From IMG/VR virus record IMGVR_UViG_3300021124_000001: DNA of 64,000 nucleotides. One strand, 5' to 3'. The translations under genes and the position numbers were made by a program. The notes beneath the pieces are model-generated. The model did no database searches and had not been told where the DNA came from. It was given only the letters and a program-made list of their open reading frames with translations. Every line of letters starts with the position of its first letter. Positions within the stretch are counted from its first letter, which is position 1. Below, one piece after another: positions 6,549 to 48,798 of this stretch. Source of the stretch: a virus. Its lineage: Duplodnaviria > Caudoviricetes.

Positions 6549-7082
6549 ATGTCTAATGTATTCAATACTGGTGTTAATCCAGTCCATTCTGGTATTTACG
6601 TGGTCGACCGCGGTGAGAAACTAGGTACACCGTTGCGTTGGTTCGATGCCGACACTGGTGAATGGTCTCGTTGTGAATATACAATGGAAGATGTTATTAA
6701 TGCCAAGGGTAAACCATCGGCACTTGGATTCTTGCCCTGGCGCGGTCCTGTCAAGGTAGCAAAACCAAAACCAGCCGCTGAGGTTGCATTGGTTAATGAT
6801 GTACACGTTACAAATACCAATAACCCAGTCGATTTTCCCAAGACTAAAGCCAAACCAGTCAAGGTTGCTAAAGTAAAAGCACCAAAAGCTGTTAAGGTAG
6901 CAAAATCAACTGGTACTAAAGCCACACACCCTGACGGTACTATTATCTTCCGTGCAGACCGTAACAAATACATGGCATGGTTTGGCGGTAAGCCAGTTGC
7001 GGCGCGACCAACTATCGAATCGGCTAAGAATTTTCTAATTAAGAAAGGTATTACTGCCGAAAATATCAATGTAATTGCATAA
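6549..7082 (+). CDS. Two-domain protein with Lys/Ala/Pro-rich linker, possibly DNA-binding
   Basis: GAGGT RBS; KPVKVAKVKAPKAVKVAK linker. Confidence 0.65.
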   Translation: MSNVFNTGVNPVHSGIYVVDRGEKLGTPLRWFDADTGEWSRCEYTMEDVINAKGKPSALGFLPWRGPVKVAKPKPAAEVALVNDVHVTNTNNPVDFPKTKAKPVKVAKVKAPKAVKVAKSTGTKATHPDGTIIFRADRNKYMAWFGGKPVAARPTIESAKNFLIKKGITAENINVIA

Positions 7083-7146
7083 ATAGGTGTGGGTCACCAC
7101 CCACCACAGGTGCACCCACTCTAATATCTATTACGGAGATACCAGC
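7078..7146 (+). promoter_or_regulatory. Late promoter plus two-hairpin leader, copy 1
   Basis: CATAAATA; GUGGGU-CAC-CACC...GGUG-C-ACCCAC; second hairpin UAUCU/AGAUA over the RBS. Confidence 0.8.
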
Positions 7147-7584
7147 ATGAAATATGTATATATTACGGCCGAGTTTAATAAAAAAATGTGTGAGATTTTT
7201 GAAGTTGATTATACGCCGACAGATACAACAAGATTTTTACTAAACAAAACCGAATCCATAATGCCTGTTAACATTGGTATTGATATTGGTGTATTTGGTA
7301 AAGACCCATGGAACAAAGGTAAAAATACTGGACCATTATCAGAATCACACAGAAAATCATTATCATTGGCGGCAAAAAATTATAAGAGAACACCAGAGCA
7401 TCAAGAAAATAATAGAATCGCAAGGTCAGATTCTTGGTCAGTAACTAATCCAAAAGGTGAAACATTTACTATAAAAAGTATGAATCATTTTTGTAAATGT
7501 AATCAATTAAATGCAGGACATATGACCTTGGTATCTCAAGGTAAAAGAAAACAACATAAAGGATGGACTTGTTCCAAAATATAA
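7147..7584 (+). CDS. Homing-endonuclease-derived DNA-binding protein with no recognisable nuclease domain
   Basis: PWNKG and SESHRKSLS NUMOD3-like motifs, C-terminal HTH-like KQHKGWTC; no GIY-YIG or HNH. Confidence 0.7.
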   Translation: MKYVYITAEFNKKMCEIFEVDYTPTDTTRFLLNKTESIMPVNIGIDIGVFGKDPWNKGKNTGPLSESHRKSLSLAAKNYKRTPEHQENNRIARSDSWSVTNPKGETFTIKSMNHFCKCNQLNAGHMTLVSQGKRKQHKGWTCSKI

Positions 7585-7781
7585 TGAACGAACGAATTAA
7601 AGAACTTGCTAAACAAGCAACTGTTCATGGCGATACTGAGCATCACCTGGACATACCGTTATGGTACTTGGAGCAGTTCGCCAAGTTGATTGTGAAAGAA
7701 TGTACCAATATTGTGTTACACTATACTGATGTTGATGAAGGTGTAGCAGTGGCCAAGAAACATTTCGGAGTTGAAGAATGA
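7584..7781 (+). CDS. MNERI...KFAELIV...HFGVEE family member 1
   Basis: All three framework blocks present. Confidence 0.8.
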   Translation: MNERIKELAKQATVHGDTEHHLDIPLWYLEQFAKLIVKECTNIVLHYTDVDEGVAVAKKHFGVEE

Positions 7782-8071
7782 AAACATCAGATATTAAAAA
7801 AGGTATGCGTGTCCGTCTTGCCAATGGTTGGTACGGTACTATGATGGATAATATGCGAGGTACTACCCGGCTTGTAGAGGTAGAAGGCCATTACACTGAA
7901 ACCGGGTCGGTATATTCACATGATATTATTGTGGCTCAAACACCTACAGGCTGGGAAGCCGTTGTGCATACTGCAAAAGAATTGCAGTGCAAAGAAATGA
8001 ATGAAGCGTTTTTTGGTGGTGGTGAAGAAGACCTACCATTTAAAAATGGTCTAGAATATATGTCAAACTAA
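7778..8071 (+). CDS. Hypothetical protein, possibly SH3-like
   Basis: Starts within the GGAGTTGAAGAATGA junction. Confidence 0.6.
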   Translation: MKTSDIKKGMRVRLANGWYGTMMDNMRGTTRLVEVEGHYTETGSVYSHDIIVAQTPTGWEAVVHTAKELQCKEMNEAFFGGGEEDLPFKNGLEYMSN

Positions 8072-8093
8072 GTATTGAATAAAGGAATATATT

Positions 8094-8636
8094 ATGCCAA
8101 ACTGGTGCTCTAATGTTGTGGTTATCTCTCACGTTGAACCATCCAAACTGGATGTTATTCGTGATGCTGTTAAGGTAGCGGCCGAAGCCTCTACTGGTGA
8201 ACATTTTTTCAATACTCTGGTGCCACGACCAGTAAATGAAGAAGAAAATTGGTATGAATGGAACGTGACCAATTGGGGTTGTAAATGGGATGTAGAGCCA
8301 CAAATTACCGAAGATACTGGTGATTCTATTACTTTGACCTTTGATACCGCATGGGCACCACCAATTCAATTCTATAATGAGATGGTCGAGCGTGATTATG
8401 AGGTTCGGGCATTCTATGATGAATCTGGTATGGCATTCGCTGGCATTTATGATAATGGCAATGACGATGATTATGAATATGGCAGTATGGACTCCAGTGA
8501 GATTGTAGATAATCTACCTCAAGAATTGGATGAAATGTTTGCTATCTCTGAGCAAAAGGCCGATTGGGAATCTGAAAACGAAGAACCTGATGTGGATGAA
8601 GCACAGGAATGGAACGATTTTGATCCAGAGTGTTGA
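8094..8636 (+). CDS. DUF1281/YubB ferredoxin-like protein
   Basis: MPNWCSN, WYEWNVTNWGCKWD and FDTAWAPP motifs. Confidence 0.8.
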   Translation: MPNWCSNVVVISHVEPSKLDVIRDAVKVAAEASTGEHFFNTLVPRPVNEEENWYEWNVTNWGCKWDVEPQITEDTGDSITLTFDTAWAPPIQFYNEMVERDYEVRAFYDESGMAFAGIYDNGNDDDYEYGSMDSSEIVDNLPQELDEMFAISEQKADWESENEEPDVDEAQEWNDFDPEC

Positions 8637-8646
8637 AAGGAAATAA

Positions 8647-9225
8647 ATGTTTGTCTTTGATGTTGAAACACTTGGTAAGGAATCTAGTGCAGTGATATTA
8701 TCCATGGCGGCCGTATACTTTGACCCGAGGGAAAAACCATCACCAAAAGATATGCGAGACACCGCATTTTTTGCCAAATTCAATGTCAATGACCAAATTG
8801 CAAGGCTTGGTCGCACCATGACCAGGTCATCCATATCATGGTGGGGTAAACAATGTGACATTGTAAAAAACAAATCATTTAAACCAAGCGCCGATGATAT
8901 TATCATTGATGATGGTGTAGAAGCCATGAGACAATGGTCAAAACAATTTCCAATGCACGACAAATGTTGGGTGTGGGCACGTGGCAACCTCGACCAATTG
9001 GTGCTTGATTCGATTGAAGAAAAACTAGGCATTGAACCTGTGTTTTTCTTTAATCGTTGGCGTGATGTGCGTACCGCATTGGACCTATTGAATGGGTCTG
9101 TGACTGGTTATGTGGATGTGGATTATCCTGGTTTCAATCCTGCACATCATATACAAAAACATGACCCAATTGATGATTGCATTTTTGACGCCATGCAGTT
9201 ACTATACGGAAAGAATGTAGAATGA
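8647..9225 (+). CDS. DEDDh 3'-5' exonuclease (DexA/Rv2179c-like)
   Basis: FDVETLG, WARGNLD, RDVRT and HDPIDDC motifs. Confidence 0.8.
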   Translation: MFVFDVETLGKESSAVILSMAAVYFDPREKPSPKDMRDTAFFAKFNVNDQIARLGRTMTRSSISWWGKQCDIVKNKSFKPSADDIIIDDGVEAMRQWSKQFPMHDKCWVWARGNLDQLVLDSIEEKLGIEPVFFFNRWRDVRTALDLLNGSVTGYVDVDYPGFNPAHHIQKHDPIDDCIFDAMQLLYGKNVE

Positions 9226-9443
9226 ACGAACGAATTGAACAAATTATTGAACAGGCATATTGCGATTTACATAAACAGGATCCAAATAGATTTTTTGGTG
9301 AAAGAACTATTGCTAAAAAAGTAGCCGAGTTGATTGTCCAAGATTGTGCCAATTTTGTGCGTGAAACATATGACCACGAGGCGGCAGAATCTATCGCATG
9401 GACAATGGAGATTAATTATGGTTTACACGGAGATTATGCATGA
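9222..9443 (+). CDS. MNERI family member 2
   Basis: MNERIEQ...KVAELIVQDC. Confidence 0.75.
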   Translation: MNERIEQIIEQAYCDLHKQDPNRFFGERTIAKKVAELIVQDCANFVRETYDHEAAESIAWTMEINYGLHGDYA

Positions 9444-9602
9444 AAACAATTTTTGATAAAGAGTATGATTCGGAATCATTGTGTGATTTGAGCCGAGATG
9501 TCCATGAGGCATTCAACAATGATTTTAATCCAACAGTAGCCGACATACCAAAAGACGAGTATGGCTTCCATGAAGGCCGGTTCATTGTCACAATAAAATG
9601 GG

Positions 9603-9664
9603 TGTTGTAAATTAACAACAAGCATACCAAAAGTCCTTGACGGACCGTCCAGATGTGCTATAAT
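9603..9664 (+). promoter_or_regulatory. Operator-associated promoter
   Basis: TGTTG-N8-CAACA, 16 bp, TTGACG-16-TATAAT. Confidence 0.85.
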
Positions 9665-9692
9665 TGCCACTTATTCGATTGATTAGGACACT

Positions 9693-9941
9693 ATGAGAAC
9701 CAAGCAAATTGTTCAAGGGCTTAAAAATAGCCAGCGTATACGTGCCATTGTGAATGGTGTTGGATTTTATACAACCGTACAAGATGCCCTGGCTGGTCCA
9801 TTTACTACGCAAACCTCGGCAGTTAATGTTGTATTGCATGAGATTGGTTCAAATAAATTAACTGGTTTTGGTCGAACCGTTAAAGTTTATAATAGCTATA
9901 TGGAAGCTGTTAATTTCAACATTCAAATTGATTTGGTTTAA
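9693..9941 (+). CDS. Hypothetical protein
   Basis: AGGA RBS after the promoter. Confidence 0.6.
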   Translation: MRTKQIVQGLKNSQRIRAIVNGVGFYTTVQDALAGPFTTQTSAVNVVLHEIGSNKLTGFGRTVKVYNSYMEAVNFNIQIDLV

Positions 9942-9951
9942 GGAGATAATC

Positions 9952-10404
9952 ATGGGTTTAGATATGTACTTGTCGGCACGTAAATATGTTTCTGATTTTG
10001 GTTTTAAACCAGAAGATACTAAACTAAATGCATCGATTAAAGAATCATTGGGTTTTGGTCCTAATGAATTTGGCCACATTTATGTTGAATTAGAAGTGGC
10101 ATATTGGCGTAAAGCAAACCAGATTCACGCATGGTTTGTGAATAATGTCCAAGATGGTGAAGACGATTGTGGAAATTATTATGTTTCCCGCGAACAAATT
10201 AGTGAATTGGTTAATCTGTGTTCGGAAGCCATTGATAATAAAGACTCCGAATTATTGGAACCAAAAAGTGGTTTCTTTTTTGGTTCGACCGATGTGGATG
10301 AATACTACTGGGACGAATTGAAACGCACCAAAATCGTCCTCAATCAAATTTTGAATGACAAACGACTGGAAGATTGTTCCTTCCAATATCATGCGTCCTG
10401 GTAA
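9952..10404 (+). CDS. Conserved phage protein (MGLDMY...YWRKANQIH...GFFFGST...YHASW type)
   Basis: AAGGAG RBS; recognisable widespread phage hypothetical. Confidence 0.75.
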   Translation: MGLDMYLSARKYVSDFGFKPEDTKLNASIKESLGFGPNEFGHIYVELEVAYWRKANQIHAWFVNNVQDGEDDCGNYYVSREQISELVNLCSEAIDNKDSELLEPKSGFFFGSTDVDEYYWDELKRTKIVLNQILNDKRLEDCSFQYHASW

Positions 10405-10426
10405 TGTTGCATAATAATGATTATAA

Positions 10427-10499
10427 TATAAATAGGTGTGTATCGCGTCCTGGCAGGGACCATACACTCTAGCCATCGAAACAATAATCAAGGACTATT
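10427..10499 (+). promoter_or_regulatory. Late promoter plus two-hairpin leader, copy 2
   Basis: TATAAATA; GUGUAU-CGC-GUCC...GGAC-C-AUACAC-UCUA. Confidence 0.8.
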
Positions 10500-10910
10500 A
10501 TGACCAGCACTAATATGTATATACCCCAGTCGGAATGGGATGCAATGTCCCAAGCATTATCTACCATATTCGATGTAGATTATGTACCAAGTAACACCGA
10601 ACCTTATATTGTAACCCCATTATATTCTAATAATTCTGGACATTTCAATCTAGGCATAAAAAGAACGGCCGAACAAAAAAAAGCTCAAAGTACTAGACAA
10701 ATAGGAATGAGATATTCCCATTTACGCAATGAAAAAATTGGATTTGCAAATTCTAAAAATTGGTTAATCACTGATCCTATCGGTATCACATATAGAGTTT
10801 TTAATTTAAGGCAATTTTGTCGAGAAAAAAACTTAAATCAATCTAGTATGACTATGGTAGCCAAAGGCAAATTTAAACAACACAAGGGTTGGACCTGTCA
10901 GAAAATTTGA
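10500..10910 (+). CDS. Homing-endonuclease-derived DNA-binding protein with no recognisable nuclease domain
   Basis: C-terminus paralogous to 7147..7584 (KQHKGWTCxKI); N-terminal LSTIFDVDYVP module. Confidence 0.7.
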   Translation: MTSTNMYIPQSEWDAMSQALSTIFDVDYVPSNTEPYIVTPLYSNNSGHFNLGIKRTAEQKKAQSTRQIGMRYSHLRNEKIGFANSKNWLITDPIGITYRVFNLRQFCREKNLNQSSMTMVAKGKFKQHKGWTCQKI

Positions 10911-10911
10911 T

Positions 10912-10973
10912 TGTTGTTTTTAAGCAACACCGTCCCGGATTGTCCTTGACTTAGGTGCCGGCCGTGTTACAAT
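10912..10973 (+). promoter_or_regulatory. Operator-associated promoter
   Basis: TGTTG-N8-CAACA, 16 bp, TTGACT-16-TACAAT. Confidence 0.8.
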
Positions 10974-11005
10974 GGACTCTTACTTTGATTGATGAAGGAA
11001 TTTAA

Positions 11006-11869
11006 ATGTCTGGTATTTTTATGGTTGACGGTAAGTATGCGGCTAATATCAACGGCAAGATTGTAAAACGTGCTAATCGCCGTGCATTGGAGCGTATGTT
11101 AAAAGTAACTGATGCCGTTGTTGCACCCACTGAGTCCAAATTCTCTATTAACCAGCGTTTTGGTTTCGTCCGTGATATGGTTCAAATGCTTGCAAAAGGC
11201 GACCAAGCGTCCGTGGTTGTATCGGGACCTGGTGGTCTCGGTAAGTCACACACCGTATCAGCCGCTTTGACCGATGCCGGCTTCACTGATCTGTCCGTGC
11301 TTGACGAATTGGCTGATGGTGCCGTTGTGCCTGATAAATCTTTCCGTGTTGTTAAAGGTTATTCTACACCAAAAGGTTTATATCGTGTTTTGTTTGAGAA
11401 TCGTAATTCGGTTGTTGTATTTGATGACTGTGATTCGGTGCTCAAAGATCCAGTATCTCTTAACCTATTGAAAGCGGCTCTAGATTCATATTCTCGCCGT
11501 ATTATCTCTTGGCGTGCCGATACTCGTGATGAAGAATTGCCTAATGTGTTTGAATTTAAAGGCCGTGTTGTCTTTATCTCTAACCTGTCGTCATCTTCAT
11601 TGGATCAAGCCATTATCTCACGTTCACTAGCCGTTGACTTGTCTATGACTGCCAAACAAAAGGTTGAACGTATGCGATTCCTGCTTGACCAAAAAGACTT
11701 TATGCCTGAGTATGACAAACAACACAAGGTCGATGCAATGGACCTTATTGCTGAGTTATGCGATAATGTGAAAGAGTTGTCTTTGCGTACACTGATTCAG
11801 GTAACAAAGATTCGTAAATCTGCCGGTGCAAACTGGAAAGATTTGGCTGAATATGCTATTGTTGGTTGA
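11006..11869 (+). CDS. AAA+ ATPase
   Basis: Walker A GPGGLGKS, Walker B VVFDDCD, sensor FISN, arginine finger ISRS. Confidence 0.85.
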   Translation: MSGIFMVDGKYAANINGKIVKRANRRALERMLKVTDAVVAPTESKFSINQRFGFVRDMVQMLAKGDQASVVVSGPGGLGKSHTVSAALTDAGFTDLSVLDELADGAVVPDKSFRVVKGYSTPKGLYRVLFENRNSVVVFDDCDSVLKDPVSLNLLKAALDSYSRRIISWRADTRDEELPNVFEFKGRVVFISNLSSSSLDQAIISRSLAVDLSMTAKQKVERMRFLLDQKDFMPEYDKQHKVDAMDLIAELCDNVKELSLRTLIQVTKIRKSAGANWKDLAEYAIVG

Positions 11870-11887
11870 TTTTTTAAAGGATTTATT

Positions 11888-12094
11888 ATGTTTGAACAAA
11901 CTGTAATGCAAAAAATTGGACATTTATTGAAAGAAGGCGAAACTGCTGAATTTCATAATGGTACATTGTTTCTCAATTCAGGCCGACCAACGGCCAATGA
12001 TGTTTATATTGAATTGTGTAACATTTATCGTAAACGATTTATAAATTTCAATATTGTTACTGAAGGTGAATATGCGTTTGACTTTACTGCGTGA
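11888..12094 (+). CDS. Hypothetical protein
   Basis: AAGGA RBS. Confidence 0.6.
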   Translation: MFEQTVMQKIGHLLKEGETAEFHNGTLFLNSGRPTANDVYIELCNIYRKRFINFNIVTEGEYAFDFTA

Positions 12095-12305: not shown

Positions 12306-12320
12306 AAGCGGCACACCGCT

Positions 12321-12349
12321 ATCTTATACACCATTTTTAAAATTGTCAA
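12321..12349 (-). promoter_or_regulatory. Antisense-oriented sigma70 promoter
   Basis: Minus strand TTGACA-17-TAAGAT in the intergenic gap. Confidence 0.55.
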
Positions 12350-12362
12350 GGTAACTTTTGGT

Positions 12363-13368: not shown

Positions 13369-13371
13369 AGA

Positions 13372-16034: not shown

Positions 16035-16241
16035 GGTCACACAAACTAAGGAGTTCCAATGGGTAAGATGAAAGAAGTTGTTGATAGAATCTTGGACTTG
16101 GTTCAAAATGATTATGATGATGAGGCCATTGCATTGATTGTTGGTGTGGACATCACAATTGTTGAACAAGTCAAACGCAATTCTGGTCTTTATGAAGAAC
16201 CAAAAGACATAATTGAAAAATACTAATTTATGGAAATCGCA

Positions 16242-17381
16242 ATGAACAAAAATCAAAAAGCATTTATCTCTGCATCTGAGCGTAAACATGGCCGTGGTGC
16301 CACATTGACTCGTGACCAGATCAACGACATTGTTGAAGAAACTGGTTTGTCATTCCCATTCTGGTTGACCACAAAGTCTGAATATCGTGCTGGCCGTGGG
16401 CAGTATGAAGTGCCTACATTGGGCAATACACCTGTCGAGGTAGAATCTCCTGAGTTGGCTACTGTTGACCTTGCACAAGTTATGGTTCTGCGCCAGCCTA
16501 AACTGAAAGATGAATCTGATACCTCTATCCCTGAAAAGTACCCTGATTATGTCCCTTTTGGATTTTTTAAAGATTTACGGAACATTGTTAAATCCTCTCT
16601 ATTTTATCCTGTGTTTATTACTGGTCTTTCTGGTAATGGTAAAACCCTCATGGTTGAACAAGTTTGTGCCGAACTCCAAAGAGAGTGCATCCGTGTCAAT
16701 ATTAGTATCGAAACTGACGAAAGCGATTTGTTGGGTGGTCCTACTCTTGTCAATGGCAACGTTGTTAACCGTGATGGTCCTGTCATTATCGCTATGAAGC
16801 GTGGTGCCATTCTATTGATTGACGAAGTTGACCGTGGTTCTAATAAACTAATGTGCTTGCAAGGTATTCTTGAGGGTAAGCCATACTACAACAAGAAATC
16901 TGGTGAGTTGGTGCATCCTGCTCCTGGCTTCAACATCATTGCTACTGCTAACACTAAAGGCCGTGGTTCTGATGAGGGCAAGTATCTATCTCAGATTCTT
17001 GATGATGCATTCTTGGAACGTTTCCCTATTACTGTAGAACAGGAATATCCTGACAGCAGAACAGAGACTAAGATTCTTACACCATTGATTAAGGACGAAG
17101 ACTTTGTTAAGTGCCTTGTTATGTGGGCTGAAGTGGTCCGTAAGTCATTCGATGAAGATGCAACCGATGAAGTTATCTCTACTCGCCGTTTGGTGCATAT
17201 TGCAAAAGCATATGAAATCTTTGGTGAACGTATGAAGGCTATCAAATTGTGTGTGAATCGTTTCGATGAAGAAACCAAGACTGCATTCCTTGACCTGTAT
17301 ACAAAAGTTGATGCAAAGATCAATGCACCTGAAGCGCCTGCTGTTCCAACGCCAAAAGTTGATGAAGAAATTCCATTTTAA
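16242..17381 (+). CDS. MoxR/CobS-like AAA+ ATPase of T4-like phages
   Basis: GLSGNGKT, LLIDEVD, ATANTKGRG, AFLERF and STRRLV motifs. Confidence 0.9.
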   Translation: MNKNQKAFISASERKHGRGATLTRDQINDIVEETGLSFPFWLTTKSEYRAGRGQYEVPTLGNTPVEVESPELATVDLAQVMVLRQPKLKDESDTSIPEKYPDYVPFGFFKDLRNIVKSSLFYPVFITGLSGNGKTLMVEQVCAELQRECIRVNISIETDESDLLGGPTLVNGNVVNRDGPVIIAMKRGAILLIDEVDRGSNKLMCLQGILEGKPYYNKKSGELVHPAPGFNIIATANTKGRGSDEGKYLSQILDDAFLERFPITVEQEYPDSRTETKILTPLIKDEDFVKCLVMWAEVVRKSFDEDATDEVISTRRLVHIAKAYEIFGERMKAIKLCVNRFDEETKTAFLDLYTKVDAKINAPEAPAVPTPKVDEEIPF

Positions 17382-24008: not shown

Positions 24009-24271
24009 TGCTTTCTATCTTTCACTATTGGTCGGCCAAAGAACGATTGGCTGAACACGAAAAGACCATCATGATGCTTGGTGGTGAATCTGAATGCCAA
24101 CCAATGATTCTTGCACAGCGGGATTTCATAAAAATGGAATTGGAATACTATCGCAAACCAGCAAAAATTTGGTCGATAATTTTATGCGTACTTCCAGTTA
24201 TTTTTATTTTTCTTGCACCATTTGGATATGGTGTAATAAGTAACATTGTGATGAATTGCTGCATCAAGTAA
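24008..24271 (+). CDS. Membrane protein whose 3' end overlaps the antisense endonuclease
   Basis: TAATG coupling; C-terminal hydrophobic segment. Confidence 0.55.
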
Positions 24272-24778
24272 ACTTCCAAAAATAATGCCATTCGGATCAA
24301 TAACACCTTTTGCATTTGGATTTTTTGATGCCGTCAATCCATAACAAGGATTATTTACACCAGAAGTCCTAATCGATTGTAAGAGTTTTCTTTGAGTATT
24401 ATTTTCCCAGTGTGATTTTACAATTTTTTTAAGTTTAATTCTCACATCATTTCTACGGCATGGATTTTTGTCACCATATAATTTATTTTTTTCGGCAACA
24501 ACAATACCAGTTCCGCCATCACCCCCATCAGTACGATTTCTAAGTATACCAGTTTTTTTATCTTTTCTTCCCCACCAGCGGATATATCTGCGTTCAAGAG
24601 CAAAAGCACCAATTTCGGTAAGATTACCTTCCATAATAACGATTTTGGATTTATCTTTTGGTGGATGTATTACATCATTTTTTGTGTGTTTCCATGCTCT
24701 ATCTTCTTTACCTTTACCAATGTAATAAGGTGAACCGTTTTTACGGAGATAGGCATAGATGTAATAAATACTTGACAT
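24182..24778 (-). CDS. Free-standing GIY-YIG homing endonuclease
   Basis: YIYAY...PYYIGKG...R...E...[10 protein letters not shown]; antisense to the operon. Confidence 0.85.
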
Positions 24779-24855
24779 GTGCTGTGTCCTTATGTTAGAA
24801 TTTGACATAGAGTAGGTGGGAATTCCCAGTTCCGTGACCTACACCCTTATTTATA
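24779..24855 (-). promoter_or_regulatory. Late promoter plus two-hairpin leader, copy 3
   Basis: TATAAATA; GUAGGU-CAC-GGAA...UUCC-C-ACCUAC; CUAUGUC/GACACAG over the RBS. Confidence 0.8.
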
Positions 24856-28611: not shown

Positions 28612-29247
28612 ATGTTTTTGGTCAACAAATACACTGAAAGATATAATTCTATTGTGCATAAAGCCAAAAATAGAAAGTTGGTCGAGGGTGTTTACTATGA
28701 GAAACACCACATTCTACCAAAATCTATGGGTGGCAAAAACAACAAGTGCAATTTAGTGAATTTAACACCAAAAGAACATTATGTCGTGCATCACCTTTTA
28801 ACAAAAATGTGTGAAGGTGATAATTCTAGAAAAATGAATTATGCTTTTTGGAAATTAAACATACGTTATAAAGATGAAAAAAGAACTAATATAAATTTTT
28901 CAACATTTGAAAAAATACGTGAAAAACAAAAAGAAAATATGTCAAAAACCATGACTGGTAGATTTGTCTCAGAAAAAGCCAGAGAATCTGTTAGAAATTC
29001 CAATAGACTAAGGGTTGGAGATAAACACCCCTTATTTGGTAAAAAAAGACCAAACCATGTTATTGAAGCCAGCAGAAAAGCAAACTTGGGTAATAAGTAT
29101 TGTTTAGGTAGAAAAGTTAGTGAAGAAACTAGAAAAAAAATGTCCGAATCCCAAAAAAATGTAGAAAAATTTGATTGTGGTATATGTGGTCGGAAAATTT
29201 CAGGAAAAGGTAATTTCACCCAACATACTAGGTCACATAAAATATAA
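28612..29247 (+). CDS. HNH homing endonuclease (Mob-like) with NUMOD3 repeats and Zn finger
   Basis: EKHHILPKSMGG..NLVNLTPKEHYVVHHLL; SEETRKKMS; CGICG. Confidence 0.88.
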   Translation: MFLVNKYTERYNSIVHKAKNRKLVEGVYYEKHHILPKSMGGKNNKCNLVNLTPKEHYVVHHLLTKMCEGDNSRKMNYAFWKLNIRYKDEKRTNINFSTFEKIREKQKENMSKTMTGRFVSEKARESVRNSNRLRVGDKHPLFGKKRPNHVIEASRKANLGNKYCLGRKVSEETRKKMSESQKNVEKFDCGICGRKISGKGNFTQHTRSHKI

Positions 29248-37549: not shown

Positions 37550-37677
37550 AAGTCAAAAAGTTAGTTCAAAAATTAAACCGGGCCGAGTTACAACATAACT
37601 TGGAAAAGGCTAAAAAGTTTTGGATGAAGTTATTGAAGAAGTCGCTTAAAGGTAAGCACACCGAATCGGTGCGCTAA
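37546..37677 (+). CDS. Basic microprotein (43 aa)
   Basis: GAGG RBS, ATGA coupling; MKVKKLVQKLNRAELQ... Confidence 0.5.
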   Translation: MKVKKLVQKLNRAELQHNLEKAKKFWMKLLKKSLKGKHTESVR

Positions 37678-37681
37678 TAAT

Positions 37682-38005
37682 GATAGTAAACTTGGTATAA
37701 GAAAAGTGTTCTGGACGTGGGTTCGACTCCCACCAGGTCCACCAAAGTATATTAGAGTCCGTAAATACCCTTCAGTGGGCTCAAGGAACGGTTTAGAAGA
37801 TGTTGCAATACATCACATAGTATACTTTAATGGGCCTGCATTGGTTTCGACAGGGTAAAGAGTAAGATATTCAGGCTATCCGTCAGAGTTGACGTAAACA
37901 CTAAATCAAAATAAATGCAAACGATGAAAAGTTCCGCATTGCTGCCTAATTAAAGGTTGCTAGGGTTTGCTCGTAGGTTTTCCTAGTAACAGAATAAGCC
38001 TACTA
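37682..38005 (+). ncRNA. ssrA: Circularly permuted (two-piece) tmRNA
   Basis: T-arm GTGGG-TTCGACT-CCCAC plus CAGGTCC-A-CCA (ends 37744) precedes the 5' acceptor strand GGGCCTG (37832) with a G3-U70 pair; tag ORF 37917-37949 ANDEKFRIAA*; boundaries approximate. Confidence 0.92.
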
Positions 38006-38030
38006 CTATGTTTAACTTAAAGGAGTTTTA

Positions 38031-39401: not shown

Positions 39402-39625
39402 TGCCTACTAAAGATGAAATCCGTGAGTTCTCTTTGAAGATTGAGGAGATTGCCGATCTGTATAATGTTCATTGTATGGAAGCAATCGTCCAGTATTGTG
39501 AAGAATCGGGTATCGAGGTAGAAGTTGCCGCAACCTTGATTTCTTCACACCTCAAAGCACGTATCAAAGAAGAAGCTCAATCTGTTAATCTGATTAAAAA
39601 GTCGAGCCGGTTACCTATTGTATGA
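39401..39625 (+). CDS. gp33: Late transcription coactivator gp33
   Basis: FSLKIEE...[13 protein letters not shown]....LI...LK..I..EA; synteny with gp59 and gp32. Confidence 0.85.
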
Positions 39626-40298
39626 TATAATATTCATCCGGTTTTCTTTTTAATTTGGAAGAAATATTGGACTTTGTACAATTCATAAATTCGGCCGCTG
39701 TTGTTACTGATTCAAATAATCCAAAAGGTGTCATTATTCTTTTTCTCTTTTTCGGTATAGGTTTGCCTTTTTTCGAATTTGATAAATTCTGTTTATGGTG
39801 TTCTGAAAAAATCATCCCTTTTCTACCGTTTGAAATATTAGTTTTATGTTCCGAACTTTTTGGTCCTAACATTTTTTTGATAGAGTTCTCCGTGTGTTTA
39901 AAACCTAAATTGAAACCTTTCATTCCCTTATTCCACGGAGATTTGTTATAGTGGATACTATTCATACCTGAAATTTTATTTAAGGTTTCTTGTGTATGTT
40001 TATAATTCTCTACACCATCACCTCCATCGGTTTTATTTCTTAATATTCCTGTGCCTATGTCAATTCTACCATACCATCTTATCATTCGGCGTTCCAAAGC
40101 TAGTGCTCCAACTTCAGTTAAATTGCATTCAACAATTATGACTCGTGATTTATCTTTTGGTGGCTTAATTTCTTTTTTAGATTTTAACCAAGCTCGTGTT
40201 TTTTGACCTTTTCCAAAATAATATGGTGTATTATCTGGACGTAGATATGCATAAACATAAGATCCGGGTGGTGTGTTGGTTTTGGAATAAATATCCAT
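39615..40298 (-). CDS. Free-standing GIY-YIG homing endonuclease with NUMOD3 repeats
   Basis: YVYAY...PYYFGKG...[10 protein letters not shown]; antisense between gp33 and gp59. Confidence 0.85.
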
Positions 40299-40364
40299 GC
40301 TGACATTCCTTTACAATGTTAGAGTGGGTGCAAGCGGGAACTTGGCGACCCACACTTATTTATA
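40299..40364 (-). promoter_or_regulatory. Late promoter plus two-hairpin leader, copy 4
   Basis: TATAAATA; GUGGGU-CGC-CAAG...CUUG-C-ACCCAC; CUAACAUU/AAUGUCAG over the RBS. Confidence 0.8.
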
Positions 40365-40370: not shown

Positions 40371-40976
40371 ATGACAGAAAATACTGGTTTCGAAGCGTAC
40401 AAACTTTATTCTGCAATGAAGTTGCACTTCACCTCTAAATCCTATGATTATTTCCGATATAACGGAAAAACTAATGTGTCACAGGATAACTTTTTAAAGA
40501 ACAAAGCAAAATACCAATTCTACAAATTGTCCCGTAAGTATTCACTGGACGAATTGCGTAACTTTTATTTGGCCAACTTCATTTACGGTGATTCGACTTG
40601 GGTTGGTGAAATGACCGGACCAGAAGGTGAAGTTGCATATAAAAAGTGGCAAAAAACCAACCAGAGCTTGACCTATGTGTTTGAGAATGATATACTCGGT
40701 CTCATAGGAAATGATTCACCAGAACAGATGTTGATTGTCAAAGATGGTCAACATCCAATTCTTCTCCGTGAAGTGATGTCTGGTACAATCTCAATTGAAA
40801 CGATGGTTATACTGAATGATATAATGAATTTCTTTCCCATGTGGAATAGAAAGATAAGTGATGATATTATTTGGCCCAATTGGCGCCTAAAAAGTGAAAA
40901 GTATACACCATTCGTTACCTATGATAAGGTAAAATTTAAAAACATTTTGAAAGAAGTGGTTACAGAACATGCATAA
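40371..40976 (+). CDS. gp59: Helicase loader gp59
   Basis: YKLYSAMKLHFTSKSYDYFRYNGK; synteny. Confidence 0.9.
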   Translation: MTENTGFEAYKLYSAMKLHFTSKSYDYFRYNGKTNVSQDNFLKNKAKYQFYKLSRKYSLDELRNFYLANFIYGDSTWVGEMTGPEGEVAYKKWQKTNQSLTYVFENDILGLIGNDSPEQMLIVKDGQHPILLREVMSGTISIETMVILNDIMNFFPMWNRKISDDIIWPNWRLKSEKYTPFVTYDKVKFKNILKEVVTEHA

Positions 40977-42428: not shown

Positions 42429-42450
42429 ACCCTCTCGAATTCGATAGGTT

Positions 42451-43950: not shown

Positions 43951-43951
43951 T

Positions 43952-45376
43952 TTATCCGCCTATGATTGCTGGTCTCTCTGAAGGTGTTGGTGTTCTAATT
44001 GTTTGTGGTGATGAACCACCTGAAGATATGACTGTTGTTTTTGTATTATCTATTGCAACGTTGGTGCCTTTAGTGGATGATTTTAAATCTTTATTCTCAT
44101 TGGAAGATTTAATAAGATTTTCACCGGAATCTATTTTAACATTTGGTGATGATAGGAGTTTAGATTCTTTTTTACCTGATCCATAACCCTCTCTCTTTTG
44201 CATAGCATCTAATATTAATGTTCGCTGTTGTTCATTAAAATCACGCATTCTCATAGTCTTCAATTTTTCTTCAGGAAGACCAACAGCATCTCTGACAGCT
44301 TTCTGATAAGCAGGAGTATCATTAGCTTTTTCTTTTGCAGGTGCATATCTAGCGATTGCATCATCAATATTTAAATCTCTATAATTTTTACCTTCAAAAA
44401 TCAACTTAGCTTTGGCCGCACGACCAGCTTCATATGTTGGAAAAATTGCAAATCTTTCTTCAGGTGTTTGTGGTTTATTTTTTCCATGAGCGTACGGAAT
44501 TGCACCATTCGATAAAGCAAAATCGCCATATTCGATGTTACCTGGATTATTATTTCTCCAGTTCCAAACACCTTCTTTTTTGACTATTTCACCAGATTGC
44601 AATTCAACTATGTTGTAGCCCTTACCAACTTCAACTATTCTTTTTATTGCTGTTGCGGCCGCGGCACCAATAGCAACACCTGTAGCTACTTTAGCGGCTG
44701 TAGAAACGCCACCAGTAGAAACTGGAGGTTTTGTTGGACTAGCAGACACTGGTTTAGGTGCCGGTGCTTCCACCGGTTTTGCAGTTGCCGGTTTAGCTGT
44801 TGGTGTTTCTGTTGTTGCTGACTTTTGTGCAGGAGCTTCAGCTTTTTTAGCCTCAGGCTCCTTCTTCATGAACCTACCCTTCTCATCTCTAGGCGGTAAT
44901 TCTTTTTTAGGCTTTTGAGCCTTTACACCCTTTTTGGCATTCTCGATGGTGGCAATCAGTTCTTCTTGTCTTCTTTGTTCTTCTTCGAATAGTTCTTGTT
45001 CTTTATTTTTATCCAATTCAGAACGCAACTTACGATCTTCTATATCTTGCTTCATTACAGCATAGATTTTTGCACCGATGTTGGCCGCACTGTCACCTGT
45101 TCGTAGTTTAGGCTTGCTAACGGTGACAGCATCAACGTAAAAGTTGGCGTTTACATTACCAACTTTGTTGGCCATATTTGATTGTGGTGATACTTGCTTA
45201 GCCGTTTTCTTACGCTTTGACAAACCTTTTACTATATCTTCCACATTCATTGCAGTTTGTTTCACAATCATATCAACAATTTGCTTGTCAATAGCGGCTC
45301 GTTGGGCTTCCAATTCTTTACTATTTTGGCCTTTCAACTCACCGATTACTGATTCTAATTGTGACTTGTTGTTCAT
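43952..45376 (-). CDS. Tape-measure-like protein A with putative muramidase domain
   Basis: Coiled coil, PAK linker, RNNNPGNI...FAIF...G...YAP..END lysozyme-like motif. Confidence 0.65.
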   Translation of the reverse strand: MNNKSQLESVIGELKGQNSKELEAQRAAIDKQIVDMIVKQTAMNVEDIVKGLSKRKKTAKQVSPQSNMANKVGNVNANFYVDAVTVSKPKLRTGDSAANIGAKIYAVMKQDIEDRKLRSELDKNKEQELFEEEQRRQEELIATIENAKKGVKAQKPKKELPPRDEKGRFMKKEPEAKKAEAPAQKSATTETPTAKPATAKPVEAPAPKPVSASPTKPPVSTGGVSTAAKVATGVAIGAAAATAIKRIVEVGKGYNIVELQSGEIVKKEGVWNWRNNNPGNIEYGDFALSNGAIPYAHGKNKPQTPEERFAIFPTYEAGRAAKAKLIFEGKNYRDLNIDDAIARYAPAKEKANDTPAYQKAVRDAVGLPEEKLKTMRMRDFNEQQRTLILDAMQKREGYGSGKKESKLLSSPNVKIDSGENLIKSSNENKDLKSSTKGTNVAIDNTKTTVISSGGSSPQTIRTPTPSERPAIIGG

Positions 45377-45390
45377 CTACGTTTTTTTCT

Positions 45391-45458
45391 TATAAATAAT
45401 TGTGTATCGCCAGACTCTCACCTCCGCATACACTCTAACACGAAAGAACCGTATCAGC
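45391..45458 (+). promoter_or_regulatory. Late promoter plus two-hairpin leader, copy 5
   Basis: TATAAATA; GUGUAU-CGC...C-AUACAC; CUAACACG/CGUAUCAG. Confidence 0.8.
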
Positions 45459-46061
45459 ATGACTATTTATCATATAATATATAAAACTATCCACAAAAAC
45501 GGAAACTACTATTATGGTCGCCATTCCACCGATAACTTAAATGATGGATATTTGGGTTCTGGTAAATGGGTGAAAAGCATAAAAAATAAAAAAGAACTTA
45601 CCCGAGAAATAGTGGAATATGCGGATTCCATAGAGAAATTAAAACACTTAGAGGAAAAATACCTAGATGAACACTACGGTAAACCAAATTGTATGAATTG
45701 GTCTAAAGGATCACACGGTTTCAAAAAAGGTGATCCTGCAACCAAGCAAATACCTAGAAGGGTGCAGTTGAAGTTGGTAAAAGAAGGTAAACACCACCTA
45801 TTAAGTGGTGACGTACAGAGACAACAGTGGAAAAAATATAAAGAATTGGGAATAAATCCTATAACAAATATTCAAAATGTTACCGAAAGAGCAAATAGAC
45901 TAATCAAAGAAGGTAAACACAATTTTCAAAACACATCAAGTCGTGAAAAAGTGGTTTTACATCAAAAAACTGAAAGAGTGTGTCCACATTGTGGTAAAAA
46001 TGGAAAAGGCTCAATCATGTTTAGACACCATTTTGAAAAATGCAAATTCAAATCATCTTGA
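45459..46061 (+). CDS. Seg-like GIY-YIG homing endonuclease with C-terminal Zn finger
   Basis: IYKT..NGNYYYGRHST....DGYLGSG; CPHCG...RHHF..C. Confidence 0.85.
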   Translation: MTIYHIIYKTIHKNGNYYYGRHSTDNLNDGYLGSGKWVKSIKNKKELTREIVEYADSIEKLKHLEEKYLDEHYGKPNCMNWSKGSHGFKKGDPATKQIPRRVQLKLVKEGKHHLLSGDVQRQQWKKYKELGINPITNIQNVTERANRLIKEGKHNFQNTSSREKVVLHQKTERVCPHCGKNGKGSIMFRHHFEKCKFKSS

Positions 46062-46241
46062 ATTTTGTCGCTCTTTAATCTTGGCATTTTCTTCTTCAAT
46101 ATATTGAGCAAGCATACTAACGTAAATTTCACGCTCCCATGGCATCATATTTTCTAGCTCCGTCAAACTATACTTGTGATGCTGAATCAATGCAAAGTTG
46201 GTTGTATAATAGTTCCTTAATGTATCATGACGGAAGATTAC
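46053..46241 (-). CDS. gp51: gp51-like baseplate hub/tail assembly chaperone segment, with no own start over its conserved N-terminal part
   Basis: Manual translation VIFRHDTLRNYYTTNFALIQHHKYSLTELENMMPWEREIYV..., in the -1 frame of gp26. Confidence 0.85.
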   Translation of the reverse strand, partial: VIFRHDTLRNYYTTNFALIQHHKYSLTELENMMPWEREIYVSMLAQYIEEENAKIKERQNSR

Positions 46242-46960
46242 CCGAAAAAATTTTCGAGACCCTCCACCTCAATCGTATGGTGGAAACCACACTTACCACA
46301 GTCCATCTCAATTGTTTTATTTAATTTAGGTAAATTGTCAAAAAATTCTTCAATCTTACTAAATTGCTCAGTGTTCAATGATTCTACAAACTCAATTAAT
46401 TCTTCTCTTGCAACCTCATTCGCATAATAGAATTGTTCACCATCATAAATGTTAACGATACTACTGATAATCATTTCAAACGCCATATCGGTTGCAGTCT
46501 CAATATTCTTTGATGCATCCAACACAGAAAACTTTGGATAGGCCAACTTGATACTGATTCTGTCTGTTAGTTGAATCTCATCTTTAATATCATTGTGGTC
46601 AACTTTAATATCTAACAAATTAAACTTAACATCCATCATATTGCCACAAGCCTTATCGTCTACGATATTCTCACAGCGATATTTGTTTTCAACAACTTCA
46701 CCGACCGATCTCGCTCTTAACTGGATGAAATAGTATTCAACGTCCACAATAGGAAGAGAATCAATGTCAACATTCTCTGTCAAGGTACAGTTATGTAAAA
46801 CTTGTTTGATGTTCTTTTCCATAGTCTCTTTATCGTCAGATTCCATGGCCATCATTAGGTTACGTTGCTCTTTCACCAGAAAAGGTCTAAAGCGAATATG
46901 CTTCTTAGACAGCGGTAAAGTCAATTCATAGATCGGCGCATCAATTTTTGGTAAAGCCAT
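46238..46960 (-). CDS. gp26: Baseplate hub assembly chaperone gp26
   Basis: MALPKI..P.Y, FRPFLVKE, LRARSVGE, CGKCG, GLENFF. Confidence 0.9.
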   Translation of the reverse strand: MALPKIDAPIYELTLPLSKKHIRFRPFLVKEQRNLMMAMESDDKETMEKNIKQVLHNCTLTENVDIDSLPIVDVEYYFIQLRARSVGEVVENKYRCENIVDDKACGNMMDVKFNLLDIKVDHNDIKDEIQLTDRISIKLAYPKFSVLDASKNIETATDMAFEMIISSIVNIYDGEQFYYANEVAREELIEFVESLNTEQFSKIEEFFDNLPKLNKTIEMDCGKCGFHHTIEVEGLENFFG

Positions 46961-46979
46961 TATATCTCCTTCAAATCAA

Positions 46980-47651
46980 TTAGTAATAAGACTCAAGTTT
47001 TGGTCCTTCTTGCAATATTACATTCTTCTCGTTAACAATGTTATTATCTGTAAATCCGGTTAGGCCGCCAGTTGAATTAAGAACTTGTGTAATTCCATAC
47101 TGTAGTGCACTGTCACCAAATTTCTGTATAGAGTTGTTTTGCCAGTATCTGTAAGCGAAGACAACAGTTAATTTGTGGTGTCCATCATTAGACCAATCCA
47201 AGTCCAATTGGTTGACTGAAACTGGAAACGCATCGATCAGGTTGATGGAGTATGTTAATTTGTTATCAACACCATACTGATTGACTGTCAAGGTAGAGAT
47301 GTAATCATTTCTATAGTTGAAATCAAAAGACATTGTTGGGTTGATGTATTCCATCCATGCATCAAAGAAAATCTTCTCAGACATATCATCCGAAACAATG
47401 AATGTCATCTCAGACTCATTGTAGTTCGATTGGTAAGCATGTTTTTCGATTGGGTTTGAACCGATTTTCTGGTCTGCTGTTGCAAAGGTTCTGCTAGGTA
47501 ACTGAGCAGACTCACAGCGTAATGTCAAATTTCTACTTGTTGACAAATAGTACAACATTGGCAGCGGAGCAGGAATAGTAACATCAAACCTATTTGGTCT
47601 TGCAATATCGGTCTTAAACGAACCAAGAAAATCTGTAATACTTGATGGCAT
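46980..47651 (-). CDS. gp54: Tail tube initiator (gp54, gp19 fold)
   Basis: ARPNRFDV, CESAQLPS, FDAWM, AFPVSV..LDLDWS and FAYRYW motifs. Confidence 0.75.
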   Translation of the reverse strand: MPSSITDFLGSFKTDIARPNRFDVTIPAPLPMLYYLSTSRNLTLRCESAQLPSRTFATADQKIGSNPIEKHAYQSNYNESEMTFIVSDDMSEKIFFDAWMEYINPTMSFDFNYRNDYISTLTVNQYGVDNKLTYSINLIDAFPVSVNQLDLDWSNDGHHKLTVVFAYRYWQNNSIQKFGDSALQYGITQVLNSTGGLTGFTDNNIVNEKNVILQEGPKLESYY

Positions 47652-47653
47652 TT

Positions 47654-48277
47654 TTATTCTTCTGAGTTAAAGTGTTTCATGTGATCTTTCCACTCCAATA
47701 CCGAATCTCTCCACACTTTTTGTGGTTTTGCACCTCTAAATTGCTGTATTGGTAACATTGTTGCCACATCCCACTCATTCGGTTGGATTGTCAACATTCT
47801 GGAACGAACATGATTAAACAGGTATCGTTTCAGACAAGGCCTAAACTCCGCATACTTCTTGGATGCTTCCAGGATGTCGTAGGATATTCTCATACGTCTA
47901 ATGTCGTTCTCTGCTGTCAACTGTGCATATTTCATCAGTTTGGACAAGAACGCAATACGGAACTTGACTGGTAAATAGTGCAGATTCAGACCCATGAAAC
48001 CATCATTATATCTTTCCAAAATCAAAACCATTGGGAATCTATCCCAATATGGCATGTCTGCCTTGGTTTTAGGATCATAATAGAAACAATACATCATTCC
48101 AATACGAAACTGGGATGTCTGTCTAAATGTTTCTTTATTGATTGTAGATGGTATTGTTGACGGCCTTTTGATCTCGTCAATCTTTTCCTGCAACCAAGCC
48201 ACAGCATCACGAGACATAGTTTTATGTCCTGCCGCCGCTTTTTGTTCTGCTAGTGAGGTGAGTTTGGATGTGGTCAT
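47654..48277 (-). CDS. gp2: DNA end protector gp2
   Basis: YDPKTK..PYWDRFP, GLNLHYLP and CLKRYL motifs. Confidence 0.9.
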   Translation of the reverse strand: MTTSKLTSLAEQKAAAGHKTMSRDAVAWLQEKIDEIKRPSTIPSTINKETFRQTSQFRIGMMYCFYYDPKTKADMPYWDRFPMVLILERYNDGFMGLNLHYLPVKFRIAFLSKLMKYAQLTAENDIRRMRISYDILEASKKYAEFRPCLKRYLFNHVRSRMLTIQPNEWDVATMLPIQQFRGAKPQKVWRDSVLEWKDHMKHFNSEE

Positions 48278-48282
48278 TTCTT

Positions 48283-48348
48283 TATAAATAAGTGTGTATC
48301 GCCGGTGGTCAGACCGCATACACCCTAACACGAAAGAACCGTATCAGT
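48283..48348 (+). promoter_or_regulatory. Late promoter plus two-hairpin leader, copy 6
   Basis: TATAAATA; GUGUAU-CGC-CGGU...ACCG-C-AUACAC; 3' half near-identical to copy 5. Confidence 0.8.
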
Positions 48349-48798
48349 ATGATTATTTATAAGCTATCTCAAAAAGAATTTGATTCTTTAAATTTATCAC
48401 TTTCCAAAGCATTCGATGTCGCATACCAAGAAATGAACGTTGGTGACCAAATTTTTGAAACTTCATCAGTTCCATCCAGTAACTGCATATTGAGAGGCGA
48501 ATCTAGTCCTAGGTGGCGTAAAAAACATTCAGAAGAATCTAAGAAAAAAATGGCGGCCGCAAGATTAGGCAAAAAAGCCACCGATGAAACAAGAAAGAAG
48601 ATGAGTTTAGCTCAATTGGGTAAAAAACAAAGGCCTGAATCTATAGTAAAAATGTTGGAAACTAGAAAAGGTAAACCGGCAGGCATGAAAGGTAAAAAGA
48701 AAATAACTACAGTTTGTCCACACTGTGGTCTAATAGGTGCTAGAAGCTCACTGAAAAGGTATCATTTCGACAACTGCAAATCTTTAAGAAATTCCTAG
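48349..48798 (+). CDS. NUMOD3/Zn-finger protein with no recognisable nuclease domain
   Basis: HSEESKKKM, TDETRKKMS, CPHCG...RYHFDNC; N-terminal LSKAFDVAY module. Confidence 0.72.
   Translation: MIIYKLSQKEFDSLNLSLSKAFDVAYQEMNVGDQIFETSSVPSSNCILRGESSPRWRKKHSEESKKKMAAARLGKKATDETRKKMSLAQLGKKQRPESIVKMLETRKGKPAGMKGKKKITTVCPHCGLIGARSSLKRYHFDNCKSLRNS

Follow-up and report, generated by a model that had tools for sequence, protein, structure and literature searches.

A late promoter combined with an RNA structure is already known as a theme for the homing endonuclease genes (HEGs) of T-even phages. I-TevI, I-TevII, I-TevIII, segB and Aeh1 mobE are each preceded by a late promoter and by a hairpin that sequesters the ribosome-binding site (RBS) (Edgell, Gibb and Belfort 2010, PMC2988022). 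Here we describe a cassette of ~95 bp that stands at the head of free-standing HEGs in a 64,000-nucleotide stretch (the window) of the IMG/VR record IMGVR_UViG_3300021124_000001, which covers part of the genome of an uncultured freshwater T4-like myophage. It resembles the T-even genes in having a T4-type late promoter immediately 5′ of a free-standing HEG, RNA structure around the Shine-Dalgarno (SD) sequence and an apparent aim of confining a potentially harmful nuclease to late infection. T-even HEGs have a single, very stable sense hairpin that engulfs the RBS, with the late start inside it, whereas the cassette has two hairpins whose opposite-strand form appears to be the selected one and whose sense form is predicted to mask the RBS weakly, a putative second late promoter inside the open reading frame (ORF), and one portable sequence used across unrelated HEG families.

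Among metagenomic HEGs, Dassa, London, Stoddard and Pietrokovski (2009, PMC2677866), in those parts of their paper that deal with HEG leaders, described TATAAATA hairpins and two complementary motifs in 5′ untranslated regions (UTRs). Their loci and ours share an origin in uncultured marine or freshwater T4-like DNA, a variety of HEG families and a late box with two pairing motifs, and, as far as a comparison of compatible text descriptions allows, the two sets may represent one element or two sister elements. In the same parts of that paper the hairpins come from single-sequence folding of the sense strand with RNAfold and are interpreted, for 'fractured gene' loci that are co-oriented, as masking the RBS in the manner of Aeh1, and these parts contain no covariation analysis, strand test, facing promoter or link to divergent neighbours. 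An antisense RNA opposite a free-standing HEG of a T4-like phage has been described in cyanophage S-PM2, where CfrI is, according to the summary available, co-expressed with its target and links the HEG to psbA (Millard et al. 2010, summarised in PMC2984593). According to the same summary CfrI is ~225 nt long, extends over psbA and the 3′ region of the HEG, and is found at a single locus, whereas the RNA predicted for the cassette would be ~70 nt long, would cover the HEG 5′ UTR and would belong to a multi-copy family with a conserved fold. In IS10 (RNA-OUT/RNA-IN) and P22 sar, convergent promoters tens of bp apart give a short stable antisense RNA over the translation start of a gene that is harmful when over-expressed, with defined terminators and experimentally shown pairing; the RNA predicted here differs in having no defined 3′ end and may run on as mRNA for the adjoining gene. 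Lastly, RB49-type phages carry PeSL promoter-stem-loop cassettes (Arbiol et al. 2010, PMC2839356; Comeau et al. 2014, PMC4122927). As portrayed in the sections of these papers that introduce them, they are likewise short multi-copy blocks of promoter and stem-loop, presented as promoter-terminator motifs, that flank variable ORFs with which they are thought to move. PeSLs join an early sigma-70-type promoter to a terminator stem-loop and, to our knowledge, no covarying fold has been reported for them, whereas the present cassette is HEG-linked and has two facing late promoter boxes and a covarying two-hairpin fold. Membership of the PeSL group was rejected, both boxes being late-type and the hairpins not terminator-like. 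What we have not found described is the antisense two-hairpin fold, a promoter placed in the first codons of unrelated nucleases, and the head-to-head coupling to core genes.

The covarying fold and its strand

Read along the HEG, the cassette consists at all six loci of (T/C)ATAAATA, 3-5 nt, a bulged hairpin 1, YCTA, an SD-bearing hairpin 2 and the ATG, with a late promoter, a sense box of the TATAAATA type, directly 5′ of the HEG in every case. The six sites and their common layout had been pointed out in a preliminary description made from the sequence alone, and both were found as described. Of two covariance models, R1 for hairpin 1 alone and R2 for the full unit, each retrieves exactly the same six copies in 64 kb, with scores of 43-51 bits for R1 with filters off (next best 9.6 bits) and 43-89 bits for R2 (next best 11 bits). 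Further copies were collected from IMG/VR in two scans. The first used a loose pattern made of the promoter and the first 12 bases and gave at least 117 loci, ~95 of them with a complete hairpin including the 3′ half that is absent from the pattern; the second used a pattern containing neither promoter and gave mostly new contigs, from which 89 copies were used. Together they add at least 100 further copies, and in fact far more. All copy sets discussed below (22-89 sequences) were drawn from these loci, and the counts are those among the matches listed.

Both hairpins covary in the wider set; for the six copies, covariation had already been claimed for the helices P1 and P2 of hairpin 1. In the six window copies 97% of the alignment cells are paired with 20 double-sided changes, a result reached by none of 500 shuffles. 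For hairpin 1, 74 distinct sequences counted on the sense strand have 96% of cells paired and 190 double changes, which neither shuffles nor slid registers approach. For hairpin 2 (66 distinct sequences) the outer five pairs show 65 double changes with 87% of cells paired on the sense count, and the inner stem, counted from both anchors, is paired in 85% of cells against 53% in shuffles. Two details of the earlier picture have changed. The supposedly invariant CRC/C internal loop consists of two single-base bulges around a covarying pair, in which the R of CRC and the base following P2, the inner helix, form G-C, A-U or A.C. The recurrent A-C mismatch was indeed seen; being systematic, it is better understood as a G.U pair on the other strand than as a mismatch.

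This last point is central, since an A.C on the sense strand is a G.U on the antisense strand and the asymmetry between the two therefore favours a fold of the antisense strand. Among the non-Watson-Crick cells of the hairpin-1 core, counted in sense orientation with regex anchors and free of any model, there are 20 A.C and 1 G.U, and in hairpin 2 there are 95 A.C (57 of them the invariant CUA/CAG closure) and 3 G.U; in copy 5 of the window the single P2 mismatch of the sense orientation disappears in antisense. For the same segment of 78 unique copies the minimum free energy (MFE) is -13.7 kcal/mol in sense and -19.1 kcal/mol in antisense, the antisense fold being the stabler in 76 of the 78 (p 3e-14). 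Aligned as antisense, 22 sequences have 99.5% standard pairs, and in 86 distinct sequences 99.3% of 1613 cells are standard; the latter set contains 381 double changes, and 15 of its 19 pairs show compensation. Moreover, RNAalifold run de novo on the 22 antisense sequences returned the same fold as the one drawn by hand (19 pairs, -23.29 kcal/mol) and did less well on the same sequences in sense (14 pairs, -15.73 kcal/mol). Because the asymmetry, the MFE values, the antisense alignments and RNAalifold agree, the fold is assigned to the strand opposite the HEG, and selection very probably keeps it there.

The preliminary description had placed the conserved structure in the leader of the HEG mRNA, as an RNA that binds a protein or ligand or as a processing site controlling HEG translation in cis. 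Such a sense leader would account for an orientation and a distance to the SD and ATG that are constant and for the position of the SD within the loop and 3′ arm of hairpin 2, and the covariation is significant on the sense count too, at the 96% and 87% given above. Watson-Crick covariation is, however, blind to strand, and all strand-specific signals point the opposite way: there is essentially no G.U on the sense strand, with at least 30 A.C cells in hairpin 1 and 38 variable A.C cells plus the invariant A.C in hairpin 2, and individual sense folds are no better than those of shuffled sequences (z -1.4 to +0.5). In addition, the predicted sense start would cost hairpin 1 two base pairs. With every strand test on the other side, a function as a sense leader is quite improbable, and a strand test is needed before a structure of this kind is called a leader, since G-U on one strand reads as A-C on the other.

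As for the molecule that carries the fold, RNA is the natural reading and single-stranded DNA the alternative. A purely DNA-level element, such as a PeSL-like recombination handle or single-stranded DNA hairpins acting in homing or repair, would fit a conserved multi-copy block at the border of mobile ORFs (six in 64 kb, 13 in a 360-kb genome) at which metagenome assemblies break; G.T is the least destabilising DNA mismatch, and the PeSL cassettes offer a precedent as far as their cited descriptions go (PMC2839356, PMC4122927). A recombination handle needs identity and not compensatory changes, whereas here P2 and its loop are hypervariable with the pairing kept, and two promoter boxes frame the fold precisely at promoter-like spacing, all of which makes an element devoid of RNA function very unlikely.

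A late-promoter box facing the nuclease genes

Codons 2-4 of the HEGs read NNT ATT TAT, which gives proteins beginning with 'MxIY' and reads NATAAATA on the antisense strand, the sequence accepted as the one that cyanomyoviruses use as their late promoter (PMC2984593). An exact antisense ATAAATA 7-mer occurs in 56 of 86 copies, at an unvarying distance of 6 nt from the CAG that closes hairpin 2. Whereas the first two bases of codon 2 vary freely, its third base is T in 83 of the 86, against 38% T at third positions of the genome, a constraint on the nucleotides that exceeds what coding requires. In the scan made with neither promoter in its pattern the antisense box is as conserved as the sense box (exact in 55 and 53 of 89 copies and with at most one mismatch in 78 and 74, respectively). 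Unrelated nucleases all begin in this way, including several GIY-YIG types, HNH enzymes ('MTIYHKHHIVP'), TnsA-like proteins and proteins with NUMOD3 only, so that a single cassette does head different nuclease families (GIY-YIG, HNH, TnsA-like and nuclease-less), as had been proposed; the facing box would account for the odd start that they have in common. In the window the box is present in copies 3-6, and copies 1 and 2 have the degenerate TATACATA in its place.

The late box of T4 spans -13 to -6, with A(-13) variants at nine T4 sites (PMC2988020). Under this rule transcription of the antisense strand is predicted to begin at the G immediately 5′ of CUG, one base ahead of the antisense form of hairpin 2 (hairpin 2′), and the predicted sense start directed by TATAAATA lies inside the 5′ arm of hairpin 1. 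The preliminary description had put both hairpins downstream of the sense promoter, which is not supported under the T4 rule.

From these features we judge the chances to be about even that the element works as a bidirectional late-promoter cassette, the source of an antisense RNA and perhaps also of its neighbour's leader. In such a cassette two late promoters would face each other across the two hairpins, the sense promoter TATAAATA driving the HEG and the second one, NATAAATA within HEG codons 2-4, pointing backwards. The predicted transcript would begin one base ahead of hairpin 2′, the 7-nt loop of which is complementary to the HEG SD, would then traverse the bulged hairpin 1′ and the complement of the sense promoter, and in about two-thirds of copies would enter the RBS and start codon of a divergent core gene. 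An RNA fully complementary to the HEG 5′ UTR including SD and AUG, made from a convergent promoter ~60 bp away, would hold down HEG translation or transcription in cis. The same transcript would supply the invaded host gene with a late promoter and a leader carrying a hairpin at its 5′ end, which would lower the cost of the insertion. Compared with what is expected of a cis-encoded antisense RNA, a candidate opposite-strand promoter facing the 5′ end of the HEG is present at the level of sequence, and the folded RNA would be complementary to the translation start, the hairpin-2′ loop being an anti-SD by construction; a defined 3′ end was not found, and the SD and ATG of the neighbour follow instead.

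The same inverted arrangement of boxes lends itself to a mask of the T4 type. On a sense read-through RNA, UAUAAAUA would pair with the UAUUUAU of codons 2-4 and close a three-way junction around the hairpins that hides SD and AUG, and the late RNA, lacking the 5′ arm, would be translated. TATAAATA and TATTTAT(N) are exact inverted repeats flanking SD and AUG, the predicted sense start lies inside the 5′ arm of hairpin 1, and the logic is documented for I-TevI, segB and Aeh1 mobE (PMC2988022) and is the one by which metagenomic HEG hairpins are interpreted in the pertinent parts of Dassa et al. 2009 (PMC2677866). The predicted effect is small, the SD-AUG region being unpaired with a probability of 0.52 in the late RNA and 0.45 in the read-through RNA (higher in the late RNA in 55 of 79 copies), and the closing stem has only seven A-U pairs. 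Selection of the structure on the sense strand, as in the T-even mask, was not what the asymmetry, the MFE or RNAalifold indicated, all of them favouring the other strand. Furthermore, little sense read-through is expected in the roughly two-thirds of copies that are inverted relative to their neighbours, the co-oriented window copies, where the need would be greatest, carry a stem-breaking TATGTAT, and the few variant sense promoters (CCTAAATA, ACTAAATA) come with no compensating change in TATTTAT. We consider masking of this type unlikely.

Invaded genes and the course of the predicted transcript

In 56 of 85 unique copies the cassette is flanked by a divergent ORF (70 aa or longer) that starts no more than ~120 nt beyond it, at a distance of 2-40 nt in 45 of the 56; an SD-like motif precedes 27 of the 50 divergent ORFs that start within 70 nt. 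These neighbours are core genes: clamp loader, gp59, gp2, gp41, baseplate hub, gp46, polymerase, UvsX and ribonucleotide reductase. In the window, copies 4-6 have such neighbours (Table 1). The one beside copy 5 matches tail-lysozyme- and tape-measure-like PHROGs and owes its gp5-like label to its position in the baseplate cluster, and copies 5 and 6 are inverted within this gp4-gp2-...-gp5 cluster. With about two-thirds of copies head-to-head with a host gene, the earlier suggestion that these elements insert in either orientation fits.

The mobility of the cassette with its ORF had been proposed together with a comparison of empty sites. Among IMG/VR loci with gp2 relatives (52-93% identity), 47 of 48 have no cassette at the gp4/gp2 junction, and the 13 empty junctions that were read run from the gp4 stop through 3-18 nt, mostly 11, to the gp2 start; thus the leader travels with the ORF, as a portable module should. 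All 13 share CTAAATA 4-8 nt 5′ of the gp2 ATG, a sequence that resembles a late-promoter box and is too near the ATG to serve gp2. In metagenomes (four DNA runs), contigs often end or branch inside cassettes, as dispersed repeats do. One contig appears to join 39625 to 40361, which would delete c4, the HEG behind copy 4, with its cassette; its shorter side has 23 letters and is too weak to use. A link to split inteins, with 'fractured genes' in mind, was dropped: no obvious intein halves were seen by eye at the ends of upstream co-oriented ORFs, where no scan was run.

The position of the fold next to host genes may also be explained with no active promoter at NATAAATA. The antisense-strand hairpins would then act only in the read-through mRNA of the host cluster, as a processing, stability or insulating element just 5′ of the invaded gene. 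The fold does lie on the neighbour's strand in about two-thirds of copies and ends 2-40 nt before start codons, copies 5 and 6 sit inverted inside a late cluster, and ~10 of 81 cassettes are intact beside a truncated HEG ORF; a locus with hairpin kept and HEG lost is mentioned in the part of Dassa et al. 2009 concerned with such loci (PMC2677866). Left unexplained are the T-specific third base of codon 2, the MxIY start common to unrelated nucleases and the conservation of the facing box to the level of the sense promoter, and the co-oriented copies (16-20 of 85) retain fold and box. We give this account a rather low probability.

Several observations weigh against the bidirectional cassette with its antisense RNA. 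Alignments based on covariance models are biased toward the modelled strand. The facing box is degenerate in about one-third of copies, window copies 1 and 2 included, both of which keep the fold; it overlaps Ile-Tyr codons that many GIY-YIG enzymes need anyway; and it is an exact inverted repeat of the sense promoter, so that its conservation could serve RNA pairing and not transcription. Its retention is independent of a divergent neighbour (38 of 56 copies with one, 19 of 29 without). Many of the neighbours are replication genes, and in T4 itself genes of this kind do not belong to the late class. Finally, a terminator scan called no terminator after hairpin 1′ and no U enrichment was found there past the complement of the promoter. 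In the absence of a good intrinsic terminator a discrete small RNA is doubtful, and any transcript reaching this stretch, which is not terminator-like, would continue into the neighbour.

Table 1. Coordinates of cassettes, facing boxes and genes in the window; the strand of a cassette is that of its fold, and c1-c6 are the HEGs behind copies 1-6
Feature	Position	Strand	Remarks
Cassette copy 1	7078..7149	fold best on minus	Sense promoter CATAAATA 7078-7085 (+); two hairpins; ATG 7147; R2 58 bits; MFE sense -18.2, antisense -23.6 kcal/mol
Cassette copy 2	10427..10511	-	Long hairpin-2 loop; R2 47-52 bits
Cassette copy 3	24778..24855	+	Sense promoter TATAAATA 24848-24855, minus strand; 2 additional nt ahead of hairpin 1; R2 43 bits
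Cassette copy 4	40296..40364	+	R2 89 bits, zero non-standard pairs; on + strand: CAT, G 40299 (predicted antisense +1), hairpin 2′ 40300-40322, A 40323, hairpin 1′ 40324-40353, sense-promoter complement 40357-40364
Cassette copy 5	45391..45461	-	Sense promoter 45391-45398 (+); predicted antisense +1 45458; R2 72 bits; MFE sense -7.3, antisense -19.3 kcal/mol
Cassette copy 6	48283..48351	-	Predicted antisense +1 48348; on minus strand: hairpin 2′ 48347-48325, hairpin 1′ 48323-48294, sense-promoter complement 48290-48283; R2 77 bits; MFE sense -12.9, antisense -20.6 kcal/mol
Facing box, copy 3	24763..24770	+	AATAAATA, codons 3-5 of c3
Facing box, copy 4	40286..40293	+	AATAAATA, codons 2-5 (D-I-Y-S) of c4; T4-rule spacing
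Facing box, copy 5	45464..45471	-	GATAAATA, codons 2-5 of c5
Facing box, copy 6	48354..48361	-	TATAAATA, codons 2-5 (I-I-Y-K) of c6
c1, HEG-like ORF	7147..7584	+	145 aa; no nuclease domain; phrog_2081, phrog_314 (C-terminal parts only)
c2, HEG-like ORF	10500..10910	+	136 aa; no nuclease domain
c3, GIY-YIG (seg-like) ORF	24182..24778	-	198 aa
c4, GIY-YIG (seg-like) ORF	39615..40298	-	227 aa
c5, GIY-YIG ORF, second type	45459..46061	+	200 aa; phrog_314, E 1.3e-18
c6, NUMOD3 protein	48349..48798	+	149 aa; NUMOD3 E 2.8e-9; no nuclease domain
Divergent neighbour of copy 4, gp59-like helicase loader	40371..40976	+	6 nt beyond cassette; phrog_269, E 1.5e-60
Divergent neighbour of copy 5, provisionally gp5-like	43952..45376	-	474 aa; 14 nt beyond cassette
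Divergent neighbour of copy 6, gp2 DNA end protector	47654..48277	-	5 nt beyond cassette; phrog_429
HEG with no cassette, seg-like GIY-YIG	53820..54437	+	Start overlaps stop of upstream gene by one base
HEG with no cassette, HNH/NUMOD3 protein	28612..29247	+	
CobS/porphyrin-biosynthesis-type AAA ATPase	16230..17381	+	phrog_249, E 1.5e-106
Transfer-messenger RNA (tmRNA)	37607..38014	+	Rfam beta-proteobacterial two-piece/permuted type, 125-135 bits

Nucleases, distribution and meaning of the family

The proteins behind the six cassettes comprise two GIY-YIG types and the nuclease-less c1, c2 and c6, as first described, with the qualification that c3, c4 and the leaderless gene at 53820 form one family: the N-terminal domain of c3 is 65-68% identical to those of c4 and of that gene, which itself is 51-68% identical to the N-terminal part of c3/c4. 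The same nuclease family therefore occurs with and without the cassette. The two leaderless HEGs in sense orientation (53820 and 28612) had been offered as an internal control, and they do not discriminate, copies 1 and 2 being co-oriented and nonetheless cassette-bearing. c1 and c2 are related (30% identity). Directly after the MxIY start, the nuclease-less proteins c1, c2 and c6 and those of IMG/VR loci L040, L068 and L034 share an N-terminal motif, ..EF[DN]....L...IF[ED]V[DE]Y.., which may be an undescribed domain or the DNA-binding remnant of HEGs.

Copy 2 represents a sub-type of the cassette, found also at IMG/VR loci L029, L037 and L075, that begins ATGACCAGCAC, or ATGTCCAGCAC in L037. 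It has CAGCAC in place of the usual CAGCATG, and its start codon is a new in-frame ATG lying 9 nt further upstream, which yields proteins starting M(T/S)ST (MTSTN in copy 2) and falls within the 3′ arm of hairpin 2.

Outside the window, the complete jumbo-phage genome IMGVR_UViG_3300032675_000001 (360,683 bp, with terminal repeats) has 13 cassette copies and one 161-kb phage genome has three. In the former, several copies have a sigma-70-like TTGACA...TATAAT early promoter beyond the cassette, on the antisense strand and aimed at the neighbour. An R2 search of Pelagibacter phage HTVC008M, Methylophilales phage Melnitz and S-PM2 found zero copies, and GenBank phages gave no nucleotide match to the window (megablast, 6 kb) or to the cassette (blastn). 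The comparison with Rfam that had been suggested was run as well: in the window the tmRNA alone reaches a gathering score, and an E-value scan of copy 4 gave only chance-level miRNA and CRISPR matches of at most 18 bits, the cassette thus matching no described Rfam family in these two scans.

The source phage is represented in freshwater metagenomes by DNA of the window, and its baseplate and tail proteins resemble gp6, gp7, gp8, gp48 and others. HTVC008M and Melnitz are the closest cultured relatives, with gp6 at only ~41% amino-acid identity. The beta-proteobacterial type of its tmRNA hints at a betaproteobacterial host, and the CobS-type ATPase belongs to the auxiliary metabolic genes that marine and freshwater T4-like phages typically carry.

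A more far-reaching version of the proposal is tentative, its prospects being somewhat short of even. Each of these HEGs would carry its own structured cis-antisense RNA, transcribed from a late promoter concealed within the first four codons of the gene, with the hypervariable P2 and loop providing a private partner for each copy, and this RNA would double as the late leader of the invaded core gene, forming a new and widespread family of phage RNAs. In either form the question bears on how HEGs, the main mobile DNA of T4-like phages, avoid harm to their hosts, which is understood for only a few coliphage genes. The cassette is a clean, covariation-supported candidate RNA family outside Rfam, and its covariance model is useful for locating HEG insertions and for flagging repeat-induced assembly breaks in phage metagenomes. 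If the proposal is true, one block of ~95 bp would let the nuclease be expressed late, restrain it through an antisense RNA and give the adjacent host gene a promoter and leader in place of its own, and many unrelated nucleases of abundant freshwater and marine phages would share a solution that is both general and portable.

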